Positions 24,912 to 29,461 of a stretch of 55,480 nt of DNA are shown piece by piece (positions within the stretch are counted from its first letter, which is position 1; each line of letters begins with the position of its first letter). The notes under the pieces are model-generated. The model worked only from the letters and a program-made list of their open reading frames with translations, was not told the origin of the DNA and searched no databases. Location: the NCBI GenBank assembly GCA_030167865.1, contig JALAGF010005425.1, positions 1 through 55,480 on the forward strand. Direction: 5' to 3'. The stretch is from Craspedostauros australis. Lineage: Eukaryota. A program made the translations under genes and the position numbers.

Positions 24912-26017
24912 GGTTTGGACTATCGTTCTTGGTCACGCTTTTGACTGCGCTTTTGACTGCGATTGATTGTTGTTCGTGCTTGCAAATTGCGCACGAATGA
25001 GGATTGTATCGGGCAGAGTGTGGGGCAGTCGAATCCGTACTTTCCTTTCTGTCTCCGCTCGCTTCAGATGCTCTTGTGATGGTTGGAGTTCGCGCAATGG
25101 AGTATGATGTTACTTGAAGATGGACGCCAGTGCTGATACTCGTACTGAGATTCGTACGTGGCGTGCACCAAGACTCCTCAAAGTGTGGTGGCTTTGTCTT
25201 GGAGAGTACTGTCCGAAGTGTATGAGGAGAAGGGTCAGGGCAACCAATGAAGGATCCGAAAGCACAGGATTGGGAATGATGGTGCAGTATTGGTTGTATG
25301 ACAATAGGTCGTGTGATGGTGCTCTCTGTGAGGAAAGGACGATTCGGCCTCTCCCACCAAACAAGATTGAACACTTCCCCCCAACAGAGGCTGCCACTTT
25401 TCGCAGATGGAGAACAATCCGATGCTCTTGGTCTCCCTCGCGCTTGCACCTTGTTGTGGTGCTCGTATCACTTGCGTACAATCCGCAACCGCAATGCCTT
25501 CTTCTTCTGCGTTGTCAGTCTTCTGATCGGTGTGCCCTGTCTGATCATCAAAGACAATGTGTGAGATTCTTCTTCTGTGCCTCGCTCTCTGTTGCAATAC
25601 CCCCCTTCTTGCCAAAGTTGCAGTCCACTCCGCCGTTTTTGTGGCGTGACGCCGTTCACCTCATTTCATGGCGAGTCCGCACGATCCTGTTTGGTCAGCT
25701 GGCGCCAAAATTCGAATGTCCGCTAACTCATTTGAACGGAAGACGTTATTTAGGCGTTATAAATTGTGGCGAGAGCGTTTGTCAGTTTGTCCAAATGAAG
25801 GGGTGTGTGGAATACGGATGAAACGTGAAACTAGAGAAATGGACAGCCACAAACAAGAGAGGCAAAGCAACAACCACCAACCAAGTCCACAATCGAAAAC
25901 AGAAGAGGACGAATTGACACCAACAGGCAGATGTTGGTATGAAGAACAGCGAATAGCATCACAACTACCATCATCCATCATTCTGCCATCATTGATCACA
26001 AGAAGCGAGAGAGGTTG

Positions 26018-26115
26018 ATCCATCCATCCATCCATCCATCCATCCAGTTCAATTCAATTCAATTCAAACATTGAACAAACAAGCATTGAACAAACAAGCA
26101 TTGAACAAACAAGCA
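26018..26115. repeat. (CCAT)n and (TTCAA)n runs plus three 15-bp TTGAACAAACAAGCA units directly before the SF3A2 ATG
   Basis: Visible; the last base of the third 15-mer is the A of ATG 26115. Confidence 0.9.
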
Positions 26116-27725
26116 TGACCTGCACAACCCTCCCCATGATCCAAGCGGACGTCTCCAACGCCTTCCGCAGCAGCAGCAGCAGCAATAACGCAACCATGAT
26201 TGCCTCATCTGCTGCAACCAAAGCACCGGCCGCTGTTGCGAGTGGACATCAGCAACAGCCAATGCAAACGCAGAAGCAGCCATGCCTGCAGACGGAAGAA
26301 CGAGCATACCCCGCGATCCAGTTCCTCGTGGAAACCCCGCACGGCCGCACCACCACAGTCACCCGCACGCTGGGTGCGCTGCTGTCGCGTCAGCTGCAGC
26401 GTCAGGAGCAGGCCCACACTGCGCAGGACCAGGAGGGCGATTACCACGATCTCCTGCTCGACATCCTGCAGGCTTGCCAACGTCGCGACGCCCCGCAGAC
26501 TCGCGCGCATGCACCGCGCAGATGCTGCTCTCCCACGTTCACGCTCGATGCGCTCAGCTTGGATGACGACAGCAGCTGTGGCGCGTCGCCATCGCAGACG
26601 CCATTGTCCAGCGCGGCCACGGAAACGTCCGTGTACTCCGTGCAGTACATGGAGGTCGATGAATACATCTTTGATGACTGCGACATCAACGAGTATGACG
26701 CTGGCAACGGCATGGAGGACAGCGAAGGCGTCTTCGTCGCGACAACCACCACAGGCCGTCCCATCCATCACCACCAACGCGCTTCGCCCAAGAAACGCCG
26801 CCGCCGTCGTGTGCTGGCAGCCAGGGATCCGCGCATCGCGTTGGTCTGGAACGGAAAGCGCGTCAGCCCCACCAACTACTACCAGATCATCCACAGCACC
26901 GTCATGGAGGCCCTCGCCAAGTCTCCCCGCGCCGTCTCCTCCATCATCGTCCTTCCGCTGCGCCTCGCCGTCGGTCTCATCGTGGGTGGCATCGATCGCC
27001 AGAACCGCGCCGGTTCCAAGTTCGGCGGTGGCGGCGTCTCGTCCTCGTCCCAATCCGAACGCGAGCGCAAGGAACGCCTCAAGCAGCTGGCCCTCGAATC
27101 CATCGACCTGGCCAAGGACCCTTACCTCATGCGCAACCACCTCGGCACCTACGAATGCAAGCTCTGTCTCACCTTGCACACCAACGAGGCCAACTACTTG
27201 GCCCACACGCAAGGCAAGAAACATCAGCAAGGCCTCGCACGCCGCGCCCACCTCGAAAAGCTGCGACAGGACAAGGAGAACGCCGCGACCGTCACGACGG
27301 GTCCGTCCCGCACAACCACAACCAAACAACAGCGCATCAAAATCGGCCGCCCCGCCTACCAAGTCTTCAAAAGCCGCGACCCCGACACGCAGCAACGCTG
27401 CCTCACGTTCGAAATCTCCTACCCCGAAATCGCCGACGACATCCAACCGCGCCATCGCTTCATGAGCGCCTTCGAACAGAAGGTCGAGAGTCCGCCCGAT
27501 CGGCGCTACCAGTACCTCGTCGTGGCGGCCGATCCCTACGAGACGATCGCCTTCAAGGTGCCCAACGAACCGCTGGATCGCACCAAGTTCCTGACGCATT
27601 GGAAAGACAACAAGTTCCTCGTGTCCATGTACTATTGGGATAAGAAGCAAGGCGACGGCAAGAAGAAGAAGAAGGAGAATGGCAAAGATAAGGCAAATGA
27701 TGATGAGGATAAGATGGAAGAGTAA
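26115..27725 (+). CDS. SF3A2: Splicing factor 3A subunit 2 (SF3a66/Prp11) with a ~292-aa N-terminal ubiquitin-like leader
   Basis: From 26991: IDRQNRAGSKFGGGG...RERKERLKQLALESIDLAKDPYLMRNHLGTYECKLCLTLHTNEANYLAHTQGKKHQ (U1-type Zn finger), then KIGRPAY, PRHRFMSAFEQKVE and QYLVVAADPYETIAFKVP. The ORF is open from ATG 26115. Confidence 0.95.
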   Translation: MTCTTLPMIQADVSNAFRSSSSSNNATMIASSAATKAPAAVASGHQQQPMQTQKQPCLQTEERAYPAIQFLVETPHGRTTTVTRTLGALLSRQLQRQEQAHTAQDQEGDYHDLLLDILQACQRRDAPQTRAHAPRRCCSPTFTLDALSLDDDSSCGASPSQTPLSSAATETSVYSVQYMEVDEYIFDDCDINEYDAGNGMEDSEGVFVATTTTGRPIHHHQRASPKKRRRRRVLAARDPRIALVWNGKRVSPTNYYQIIHSTVMEALAKSPRAVSSIIVLPLRLAVGLIVGGIDRQNRAGSKFGGGGVSSSSQSERERKERLKQLALESIDLAKDPYLMRNHLGTYECKLCLTLHTNEANYLAHTQGKKHQQGLARRAHLEKLRQDKENAATVTTGPSRTTTTKQQRIKIGRPAYQVFKSRDPDTQQRCLTFEISYPEIADDIQPRHRFMSAFEQKVESPPDRRYQYLVVAADPYETIAFKVPNEPLDRTKFLTHWKDNKFLVSMYYWDKKQGDGKKKKKENGKDKANDDEDKMEE

Positions 27726-28102
27726 TCCTATATAATACTAGTATTGACATTGCTATACGATGAGTGTGGAGTTACAAGTGTGCAGGACGAATGGTGCGCA
27801 ATGTCCATCGCAAAGTGGGCACGTGGCGGATCAGTTTCATTTTCTCCTGGCAGCCAGTCTATCGAGTTGGAGCTAGAGAGAATCGGAGTTACGATCTTGG
27901 CGATTGTTCGCCACCACACGAGAACTGGCGATGACCAGCAATCATTCTCAGGGCTGTGGCAGTGTCCGCACTCGACCTCATCTCACAAACAGAACTAGAT
28001 TGGGCCGAACTGAATTGAGTTGGACACTAGCAGCATTACGACTATATTGGAATAGTGCACAACCCAACAAGGCATATCGCAACGAGACAAGACAAGAGGA
28101 CG

Positions 28103-29461
28103 ATGTTCGACCCTTCGATGTTGCAGGCCATGCAAGGCATGGGAGGAGGCGGCGATGGCGGCACGCCTCCCAACGCAAGCCAGATGAAGGACATGCTGAA
28201 GCAGATGGGATTGCCGGAGGATTACATGGACACCATGAATCAGGACGACGGCAAGCCGCAGATGCCTTCCTTCGACGACGACAAGCCCATGTCGGAGATC
28301 ACGCGCTTGCTGGAATGCGTCAGCGAGGAGCACGGCGTGCTGCACCAGGAGGGTCGCATCGACTACTTCTGGCAGCTGCTCGACGATCGCATGGAGGCTC
28401 TGCTGTCGCAGCTGCCGCCGTGTCCGCACGATCAGGAGCTGCAGGCGCCGGCCGTGACAAAGAGCAAGGCGACGCAGCAACCGCAGGTCCCGGCTTACGT
28501 CGACAATCCCTATCGGTACCCCGCCGTCGATATCTGCTCCGGCGTCGGCGTGCAGTGCGTGGAATTCGCCAAACACGCGGCATGGCGTCGGCGTCTCGAT
28601 TGGGTGCCCACGGAGTCCATGGCCGCCGTCGTGCAGCCGGAGCGGTACGACAACTCGGCCAACACCAAAAAGAACAACAAGGACGCACCCTACAACCACT
28701 TCCCCACGTCACGTCTGCAACAACTGCGATCGGCCTTGCAGTACTTCTTCGACACCGACAACGACGGTCCCGTCCTCGCGGCCGACCGGCTCGGCATGGC
28801 GCTCTACAAGAATTCGCAGGTCAAATTGTGCGCCTTGCAGCGCGACGGATACAACGGTCGCAAGGGCAAGGTGTTGGGCGTCGATCCCAAGTCCTCCGAC
28901 GATCGTAGGTTGGGCATCAAGCTGGAGACGAAGAACGCGCCCATCTCGTTGAAGCCGGCCAATTTGGAGCGCACGGACGGCGGCTTGAAGTATGAAGAAG
29001 GCGTGCAGATCGAGCAGGATCGACAGCTGCTCGATGAGATGAAGCAGCGGGCTTGTCCGGCCCTCGTCGAGGATATTGAGAGTTGGGAGATCTACCTCAA
29101 GTCCAGTTTCTACGGAAAATGCGCGCTCGTCACCTACGTCACGGTGCAACGCGGCAAGCCGTTGGATGAAGAGAATTATGGCATGCACGACAGCGGCACG
29201 GATCCGCTCGCGTTGATGGGCCAGCCGCCGAACATATCGTGGAGGAAGCTGCTCGTCTTGGCGAATCATCTGCTGCGACCCGGTGGCTACCTCCTGCAGT
29301 ACGATTGCGCCAGCGCCAGCGAGCATTACGGCAACGAGGACCTCATGAAGGAGCACGTCGCCAATCTCTCCTTGGAGTTGGAGTTGGTCGTGAGGGAAAT
29401 TCCAGTGGACGATCCCAACAGCGAGGATCCCATGATTTCCATGCTTTGGCAGAAGAGCTAG
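28103..29461 (+). CDS. 452-aa protein; putative class I SAM methyltransferase (DUF938-like) interrupted by a large insert
   Basis: Strong coding bias. AVDICSGVGVQCVEFA...WVPTE resembles SAM-binding motif I, and ISW...ANHLLRPGGYLLQYD resembles the later strand. The middle contains VKLCALQRDGYNGRKGKV...ISLKPANLE. The gene is well supported; the function is inferred. Confidence 0.7.
   Translation: MFDPSMLQAMQGMGGGGDGGTPPNASQMKDMLKQMGLPEDYMDTMNQDDGKPQMPSFDDDKPMSEITRLLECVSEEHGVLHQEGRIDYFWQLLDDRMEALLSQLPPCPHDQELQAPAVTKSKATQQPQVPAYVDNPYRYPAVDICSGVGVQCVEFAKHAAWRRRLDWVPTESMAAVVQPERYDNSANTKKNNKDAPYNHFPTSRLQQLRSALQYFFDTDNDGPVLAADRLGMALYKNSQVKLCALQRDGYNGRKGKVLGVDPKSSDDRRLGIKLETKNAPISLKPANLERTDGGLKYEEGVQIEQDRQLLDEMKQRACPALVEDIESWEIYLKSSFYGKCALVTYVTVQRGKPLDEENYGMHDSGTDPLALMGQPPNISWRKLLVLANHLLRPGGYLLQYDCASASEHYGNEDLMKEHVANLSLELELVVREIPVDDPNSEDPMISMLWQKS

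Follow-up and report, generated by a model that had tools for sequence, protein, structure and literature searches.

A putative cleavable ubiquitin-like leader on the spliceosomal protein SF3A2 in a diatom and other stramenopiles

Background

Is a core protein of the spliceosome made as the second half of a precursor, behind a ubiquitin-like leader that is cut away? This question is raised by a gene of the diatom Craspedostauros australis (assembly GCA_030167865.1, contig JALAGF010005425.1), of which we analysed positions 1 to 55,480; this whole stretch of 55,480 nucleotides is called the window in this paper. A first-pass annotation, made from the letters of the window, had proposed that SF3A2, a subunit of the U2 small nuclear ribonucleoprotein (snRNP), is encoded there behind a split ubiquitin-like (UBL) domain that ends in two glycines (GG), in the style of the splicing factor Sde2. 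As an observation this was borne out: in a single frame of 536 amino acid (aa) residues, a UBL-like leader ends with GG right before Ile293, where SF3A2 begins. We consider it probable, with a likelihood of roughly 0.7, that the gene encodes a cleavable precursor of SF3A2, which would be cut after Gly292.

Ribosomal proteins and the accessory splicing regulator Sde2 are known to carry leaders of the ubiquitin type; a constitutive subunit of the U2 snRNP is not known to. In our full-text literature searches, we found no description of a UBL-SF3A2 fusion. The domain pair is nevertheless visible as precomputed Pfam matches in records from stramenopiles other than diatoms, so that, within these searches, the architecture was machine-annotated yet undescribed.

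Results and discussion

The leader ends where SF3A2 begins

On sequence grounds, we assign residues 293-536 to SF3A2 (SF3a66/Prp11), with which they agree in domain order and in colinearity from the first residue onwards. The matches to the Pfam families PF16835 and PF12874 (Table 1) both exceed the curated cut-offs. A full-length profile of the family matched residues 1-215 of human SF3A2 (E 8.8e-100) and also yeast Prp11 (E 1.4e-15), with residue 6 of Prp11 aligned to profile position 122. Residue 1 of human SF3A2 was aligned to profile position 117, which is the first position past the GG; the end of the leader thus coincides exactly with the start of SF3A2 in other organisms, without a linker, as had been proposed. 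Ile293, directly after Gly291-Gly292, is the counterpart of human Met1. The tail of the leader, LPLRLAVGLIVGG, corresponds to residues 280-292, and its GG was at least 90% conserved in the whole-protein alignment (A1) and invariant in alignments A2, A4, and A5. No AG dinucleotide was found between the tail codons and position 26991, and the IDRQ codons are contiguous with the GG; thus, a hidden acceptor that would bring in another first exon is unlikely.

At the other end of the protein, SF3A2 of the window has a short Lys- and acid-rich tail, KKKKKENGKDKANDDEDKMEE; the corresponding region of human SF3A2 (464 aa in total) is far longer.

Residues 264-536 served as a search query; 29 of them belong to the leader, but SF3A2 dominates the score. 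Of the 4057 proteins recovered at E<=1e-10, the best 120 showed identities of 63-75%, and none was identical to the window protein; those with names were mostly from raphid pennate diatoms (Nitzschia, Cylindrotheca, Fragilariopsis, Seminavis, and Bacillariaceae). These 120 relatives and the window protein make up the 121 diatom sequences counted here. GG directly precedes [I/M/T/V]DRQNR in 110 of them, the next residue being I in 62, M in 30, T in 10, V in 6, and MV in 2, and 11 begin at M(V)DRQNR without a leader. A leader of at least 50 residues was present in 101 of the 121 sequences (median 121), and in these 101 proteins the mean pairwise identity was 26-27% for the leaders versus 79% for the SF3A2 body.

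The leader and SF3A2 also stand in one frame, with GG at the junction, in five open reading frames (ORFs) from MMETSP transcriptomes, of which P0297, P0328, P0335, and P0350 are marked 'type:complete' and P0014 is marked 'type:com...'. Two other transcriptome-derived sequences, P0118 (Grammatophora) and P0384, begin at the SF3A2 N-terminus.

A much-diverged homologue of ubiquitin

The resemblance of the leader to ubiquitin is under the detection limit at the level of single diatom sequences, and it was found at the profile level only. Pfam gave no match to residues 1-292 of the window protein at E<=10, and the ubiquitin family PF00240 matched none of the 121 diatom family members at E<=1. Against the PDB, the whole-protein profile A1 reached polyubiquitin only at E 0.83. 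A profile of the leader only was built from 43 rows, hand-picked from 101 for complete and compact leaders, together with the window. At E<=10, this profile had 270 matches in the PDB, and all 60 of those listed were ubiquitin or ubiquitin-like. The E-values for mono-ubiquitin were 8.7e-07 to 4.4e-05; the much smaller values for polyubiquitin are a product of repeat summation. In these alignments, profile positions 7/8-104 lie on residues 1-76 of ubiquitin, and the GG of the leader falls on G75-G76.

The leader of the window itself scored 55.2 bits (E 8e-16) against a hidden Markov model (HMM) of the 100 other diatom leaders, from which the window was excluded, while the best of 2000 shuffles scored 9.9 bits. 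It fits this model in two blocks, aa 53-135 and aa 215-284, which flank an insert. This margin over the shuffles puts the match beyond chance. The order of ubiquitin elements that the first-pass annotation had read in the leader was correct. We regard residues 64-292 as a true, much-diverged homologue of ubiquitin that is split by inserts and ends in GG. Ubiquitin proper, a near-invariant sequence of 76 residues with the tail LRLRGG, it is not, given an identity of 16-21% to ubiquitin-family chains in structural alignments of a compact relative's leader (P0079), the tail LIVGG in the window, and inserts of 13 and 99 residues.

When realigned, the diatom leaders follow the pattern of ubiquitin. 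Their first strand resembles vQfLVeTPrGrTaav, and the helix after it resembles YddLLxhLLqAArxRD; then come a stretch that varies and is often rich in K/R, a strand resembling aYLVHeGkVl, and, past a variable loop, the last strand and tail, resembling LsLRLRi(l/r)GG. A K/R-rich patch (at least four K/R in six residues) is located just 5' of strand 3 in 36 of the 101 diatom leaders, where 13.7 were expected from shuffles, and in 1 of 99 leaders from outside the diatoms; it appears to be an addition to the UBL that is particular to diatoms. The K/R-rich helix of the window aligns with such patches of its relatives, and the patch was modelled as an extra helix in both of the structure models described below.

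Predicted fold of the leader

A beta-grasp fold, expected if the leader is ubiquitin-like, was predicted by AlphaFold and recovered by structure comparison for both leaders that were modelled, that of the window and that of P0079, a compact relative. The model of the P0079 leader (aa 1-100, AlphaFold2) had a mean predicted local distance difference test score (pLDDT) of 88.5, and its elements run strand, strand, helix, extra helix, strand, strand, short helix, strand. All matches listed by Foldseek for this model were native or engineered forms of ubiquitin, NEDD8, or Rub1. The best had E 9.4e-05 and a template modelling (TM) score of 0.68; among the matches listed, target TM scores were 0.6-0.72 and identities 16-21%.

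For the leader of the window (aa 64-292), the mean pLDDT was 68.9, with 79-94 in the ordered elements. This leader, too, is predicted to have the beta-grasp fold, in the order strand, strand, helix, strand, strand, short helix, strand, and its C-terminus is modelled as a loose, flexible tail, GLIVGG. In a comparison with 48161 chains by VIA-align, which is independent of Foldseek, PB1 domains matched with Z 7-8.6, and ubiquitin, ISG15, SUMO, FAT10, and other UBLs matched with Z 5.4-6.2 and were aligned across the insert. For example, ubiquitin 8q7r_U gave Z 5.7 and a root mean square deviation of 2.5, with 74 of 75 residues aligned. The beta-grasp matches cover residues 1-229 of the model. As Z-scores of 5-8.6 are in the range that the tool calls common, this comparison backs the sequence evidence and does not stand by itself.

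The strings quoted in the first-pass annotation were confirmed, namely IQFLVETPHGRTTTV at 26316 (aa 68), ALVWNGKRV at 26838 (aa 242), GG at 26985-26990, IDRQNRAGSKFGGGG at 26991, and Met at 26904 (aa 264), and some of its structural details have to be revised. TLGALLSRQL, which had been taken for the helix of ubiquitin, belongs to the window-specific extra helix of aa 86-98; the true helix is aa 104-125. The insert, put at about 140 aa, is a disordered segment of 99 aa (aa 126-224). The string PKKRRRRR (aa 225-232), described as resembling a nuclear localisation signal (NLS) within the insert, is indeed K/R-rich, but it is part of a predicted helix outside the insert. The insert itself is rich in acidic residues and Ser/Thr (16 acidic and 5 basic residues), and the stretch is missing from the aligned relatives.

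Distribution of the fusion in stramenopiles

The first-pass annotation had treated the layout as special to one lineage. Judged from the sequences collected here, the UBL-GG-SF3A2 layout is instead found across the stramenopiles. A profile search of 1.84 billion cluster representatives gave 2085 relatives of SF3A2 at E<=0.001. The best 150 of the 2085 include another type of SF3A2 N-terminus, IDFQHREGSK..., which also follows a UBL-like stretch ending in GG, and the oomycete Pythium insidiosum is the source of one such fusion. When 21 of 24 such non-diatom proteins were aligned, the GG was invariant. This alignment was then used as a search query, and the best 120 matches were counted; as the UBL was part of the query profile, the ranking is tilted towards fusions.

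GG was present at the junction in 106 of these 120 matches, 101 of which have an extension of at least 40 residues. Among the rest, 1 has AG, 10 start at the SF3A2 N-terminus without a leader, and 3 escaped the motif search. The residue after GG (n = 106) was I in 88, M in 14, L in 2, and V in 2. With the 110 of 121 diatom junctions, the GG that the first-pass annotation expected to be conserved in orthologues was recovered in both sets. Together, the 11 of 121 and 10 of 120 sequences without a leader suggest that the leader is dispensable in some lineages or was lost in truncated gene models.

The non-diatom leaders are compact (median 78 aa), and their mean pairwise identity was 27%. A precomputed match to PF00240, as counted from the listing, was found in 41 of the 120 non-diatom matches versus 0 of 120 diatom matches. 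In our own scan, the PF00240 cut-off was passed by 5 of 24 non-diatom members (P0131, P0171, P0241, P0244, and P0257). When the diatom and non-diatom leader profiles were compared by hhalign, they aligned end to end (probability 96.5%, E 7e-10), with an insertion in the diatom leader between the helix and strand 3.

The fusion was found in brown algae and allied ochrophyte classes (Ectocarpus, Choristocarpus, Discosporangium, Hapterophycus, Phaeothamnion, and Chrysoparadoxa), xanthophytes (Heterococcus and Tribonema), chrysophytes and synurophytes (Ochromonadaceae CCMP2298 and Mallomonas), raphidophytes (Fibrocapsa japonica), pelagophytes (Chrysophaeum taylorii), and oomycetes (Pythium, Albugo, Thraustotheca, Lagenidium, and Saprolegnia). 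For Mallomonas and Fibrocapsa, the class was taken from the records. Taxon names cover a minority of the matches, and the restriction to stramenopiles holds for the named sources.

Two candidates from outside the stramenopiles, P0027 and P0367, filed as Tiarina fusus (a ciliate) and 'Colp12', were rejected, since they probably derive from prey or contaminants. The name Colp12 stands for Syssomonas multiformis, an opisthokont that was also grown on the stramenopile Spumella (excerpts of PMC7147346). The UBL-GG-SF3A2 protein P0171 has a C-terminal part that matches PF00155, an aminotransferase family (E 1.4e-05), a combination that probably reflects the merging of gene models in a metagenome contig.

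Proposed maturation of SF3A2

The layout of the junction suggests that the splicing factor is released by a cut of the ubiquitin type. In the maturation that we propose, the precursor would consist of a variable N-terminal extension, a fast-evolving beta-grasp domain homologous to ubiquitin, a GG tail, and SF3A2 without a linker. A ubiquitin-type C-terminal hydrolase, belonging to the USP (ubiquitin-specific protease) or the UCH (ubiquitin C-terminal hydrolase) class, would cut after Gly292 during or soon after translation and free an SF3A2 that starts at Ile293, in the manner in which ubiquitin-eL40/eS31, FUBI-eS30, and Sde2 are processed. The freed protein would then join its partners in the U2 snRNP, SF3A1 and SF3A3. 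Before being discarded, the leader would most likely aid folding, solubility, or nuclear delivery.

The rates of change point in the same direction. Leaders at 26-27% identity beside a body at 79%, with the GG kept, are the pattern expected of a processed, disposable domain. What persists in the leaders is the pattern of the fold, a few glycines and threonines, and the terminal GG. This constraint appears to fit a domain that folds and is recognised at its tail, not a specific binding surface. Since the layout is kept in diatoms, in brown, yellow-green, and golden algae, in raphidophytes and pelagophytes, and in oomycetes, it argues for a function.

The chief alternative is that the UBL is a permanent, uncut N-terminal domain of stramenopile SF3A2, which serves as an interaction module in the U2 snRNP or the spliceosome, much like the C-terminal UBL of SF3A1, the GG being a flexible hinge. 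The fold and the homology fit such a domain equally well. Non-cleaved UBLs usually lack a retained terminal di-glycine, however, and here GG stands at 216 of 217 extended junctions, with zero linker, while the leader drifts to 26-27% identity. An interaction surface would be expected to be better conserved, and the leaders tolerate inserts of at least 100 residues and long N-terminal extensions. A precedent for an uncut domain is that SF3A1, in the same complex, carries a UBL that is not cleaved (PMC6795144, in excerpt). We consider a permanent domain unlikely.

Several results weigh against a cleaved leader or against the evidence for it. The window tail is LIVGG, where ubiquitin has LRLRGG, the tail preferred by many deubiquitinases; this difference would also suit a permanent domain. 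Single diatom sequences stay below the Pfam threshold for ubiquitin, the structural Z-scores of the window leader are in the common range, and the non-diatom search was enriched for fusions by its query. The leader is absent from 11 of the 121 diatom and 10 of the 120 other sequences, and the only sequencing-run coverage found for the gene, from a run that is RNA by guess, is one contig of 426 bases on 27284-27709.

A wider consequence is conceivable. Stramenopiles might make a core subunit of the spliceosome via a ubiquitin-type proteolytic switch that sets its N-terminal residue; unassembled SF3A2 would be destroyed and assembled SF3A2 shielded, and in diatoms the K/R-rich helix might carry the precursor to the nucleus before the cut. 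An exposed Ile or Leu is a bulky hydrophobic residue, which is destabilising in the Arg/N-degron pathway, and a role as an N-degron is possible for these residues. Such a role could not be general, because GG is followed by M, T, or V in 48 of the 110 diatom junctions and in 16 of the 106 others. We regard this extended scheme as speculative and rather improbable; it would, if true, couple U2 snRNP supply to deubiquitinase activity and to quality control by N-degrons, as the first-pass annotation had also imagined.

Comparison with known precursors

The mature partner of ubiquitin in the ubiquitin-ribosomal fusions begins right after GG. In the SF3A2 fusion, the GG of the UBL likewise stands immediately before the first residue of the partner, and by this layout it appears to belong with the cleavable fusion precursors of ubiquitin and UBLs. 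It resembles Ub-eL40/UBA52, Ub-eS31/RPS27A, and FUBI-eS30 in that ubiquitin or a UBL is placed directly before a subunit of a large RNA-protein machine (excerpts of PMC13572447). The differences are that the partner is spliceosomal instead of ribosomal, and that the leader, 16-21% identical to ubiquitin-family chains in structural alignments, is fast-evolving and in this nearer to FUBI, whereas the ubiquitin of the ribosomal fusions is near-invariant and recycled.

Sde2 of S. pombe and SDE2 of humans are splicing regulators that are activated by the removal of an N-terminal UBL (excerpts of PMC9508853, PMC13572447, and PMC6486553). The UBL of the Sde2 precursor is removed by Ubp5/Ubp15 at GG-K and can be replaced by ubiquitin (PMC9508853, in excerpt), and the enzyme that cleaves human SDE2 was reported to be USP5 (PMC13572447, in excerpt). 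As in Sde2, an N-terminal UBL that is only distantly similar to ubiquitin ends with GG on a spliceosome-associated protein, and deubiquitinases are the proposed route of its removal. The Sde2-style signature that the first-pass annotation had in mind is, however, absent: in the 216 junctions counted, GG is followed by I, M, T, V, or L and never by Lys. The cargo, SF3A2 by Pfam, is a constitutive core subunit of the U2 snRNP and is unrelated to Sde2-C, the cargo that goes with GG-K in the Sde2 family. Cleavage was demonstrated for Sde2, and for SF3A2 we infer it.

The UBL of SF3A1 differs in its position: it is a C-terminal domain within the mature protein, and no partner follows it at a GG junction. 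It does place a ubiquitin fold in the same SF3a complex as SF3A2 (excerpts of PMC6795144). Lineage-specific ubiquitin fusions have been described in algae, among them ubiquitin-NiSOD and fusions from Guillardia and Bigelowiella (PMC6332867, in excerpt); they use a recognisable ubiquitin, while the SF3A2 leader of diatoms escapes Pfam. The words 'splicing', 'SF3', 'Prp11', and 'zinc finger' have no occurrence in the excerpted main text of that paper, the additional file of which may list more partners.

The fusion makes proteolytic maturation during spliceosome assembly testable in a simple case, and in organisms for which genetic tools exist (such as Phaeodactylum, Thalassiosira, Ectocarpus, and Phytophthora). 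It may also be a shared derived character for the phylogeny of stramenopiles. As the leader escapes Pfam, gene models of diatoms may be truncated, or the domain may be missed in them.

Reading frame and position of the start codon

In the region read (25800-28200), a frame on the + strand is open from 26019 to 27725, with the stop codon at 27723-27725, and its first ATG, at 26115, gives the product of 536 aa. The candidate start codons at 26115, 26136, 26196, and 26262 all lie 5' of the UBL. Any of them may be the start, because the first 63 codons are less clearly coding, with a third-position G+C content (GC3) of 0.63 and a codon score of -0.19. G+C was 0.60-0.65 across about 26100-27600 versus 0.43-0.50 in the flanks. 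In-frame GC3 was 0.73-0.89 over aa 64-292, the insert (0.73-0.78) included, and 0.82 in the SF3A2 part, versus 0.48-0.54 in the flanks. The codon score, which was trained on the SF3A2 part and the next gene downstream, was highest in frame 0 for every leader segment, among them the insert.

These values bear on the weakest alternative, that the leader lies outside the functional protein here and that SF3A2, with a short extension or none, is translated from a start downstream (e.g., Met264, 26904) or behind an unrecognised intron. We consider it very improbable. In its favour, the 5' part is missed by the sole run contig, the first 63 codons are weak in coding signal, leaderless relatives exist among the diatoms (11 of 121), and exact copies of the seven start variants were absent from the protein collection; against it, in-frame GC3 and codon bias continue through aa 64-292, the leader fits the family profile in two blocks around the insert, ordered and in frame, and the GG codons run on into IDRQ without an acceptor just 5' of 26991. 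A start at Met264, which the first-pass annotation had itself named as a way for its reading to fall, was rejected, as the residue is not conserved; its alignment column is mostly gaps, and Met is outside the six commonest residues there. An intron in the insert was likewise rejected on the in-frame GC3 and codon score, and inspection of 26400-26800 by eye, without a splice-site program, revealed no convincing or strong GT donor consensus.

A word-based search with aa 1-300 gave no match at E<=0.01 among proteins of 294-938 aa.

Features of the locus

The coordinates of the precursor and its elements are given in Table 1.

Table 1. Elements of the UBL-GG-SF3A2 gene; positions are those of the window
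Feature	Position	Strand	Basis
Whole ORF, putative UBL-GG-SF3A2 precursor (536 codons + stop)	26115..27725	+	Open frame, translation (P0001)
N-terminal extension, Ser/Ala/Gln-rich, aa 1-63	26115..26303	+	Translation; weaker coding signal
UBL N-half	26304..26489	+	AlphaFold pLDDT 79-94; family HMM domain 1 = aa 53-135, 35.7 bits
Strand 1, aa 67-73	26313-26333	+	AlphaFold model
Strand 2, aa 79-85	26349-26369	+	AlphaFold model
Extra helix, window-specific, aa 86-98 (13 residues)	26370-26408	+	AlphaFold model
Ubiquitin-type main helix DYHDLLLDILQACQRRD, aa 104-125	26424-26489	+	Family alignment and AlphaFold model
Disordered insert between helix and strand 3, aa 126-224	26490..26786	+	pLDDT 36-52; in frame, coding-like
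K/R-rich NLS-like helix PKKRRRRRVLAA, aa 225-236	26787..26822	+	Predicted helix, model residues 162-173
UBL C-half	26823..26990	+	AlphaFold pLDDT 80-93; family HMM domain 2 = aa 215-284
Strand 3, aa 241-245	26835-26849	+	AlphaFold model
Strand 4, aa 248-250	26856-26864	+	AlphaFold model
C-half helix, aa 255-269	26877-26921	+	AlphaFold model
Strand 5 (last), aa 278-286	26946-26972	+	AlphaFold model
Gly291-Gly292, proposed cleavage site (cut after 26990)	26985..26990	+	Conservation; aligns to ubiquitin G75-G76
SF3A2 proper, aa 293-536	26991..27722	+	Pfam and match to human SF3A2
Conserved SF3A2 N-terminus IDRQNRAGSKFGGGG, from aa 293	26991-27035	+	Translation, coordinates checked
Matrin-type C2H2 zinc finger, aa 346-370	27150-27224	+	Pfam PF12874, E 2.9e-07
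SF3A2 domain, aa 410-500	27342-27614	+	Pfam PF16835, E 2.8e-34
Lys-rich tail	27630-27722	+	Translation

Upstream, tandem arrays stand back to back at 26018-26116 and reach into the first ATG: (ATCC)x7.2, (TTCAA)x4, and the 15-base unit CAAGCATTGAACAAA x3.5, all perfect or near-perfect. They may mark a 5' untranslated region or a promoter. Within the N-terminal extension, a (GCA)x6 array at 26167-26184 encodes a Ser-rich run. Antisense to the gene, a frame of 510 codons on the minus strand (26205-27737) is free of stop codons; the simplest reading is that it results from the high third-position G+C of the sense frame. The next gene downstream, at 28103-29461 on the + strand, is a 452-codon ORF beginning MFDPSMLQAMQGMGGGGDGG, which served as the codon-usage reference.

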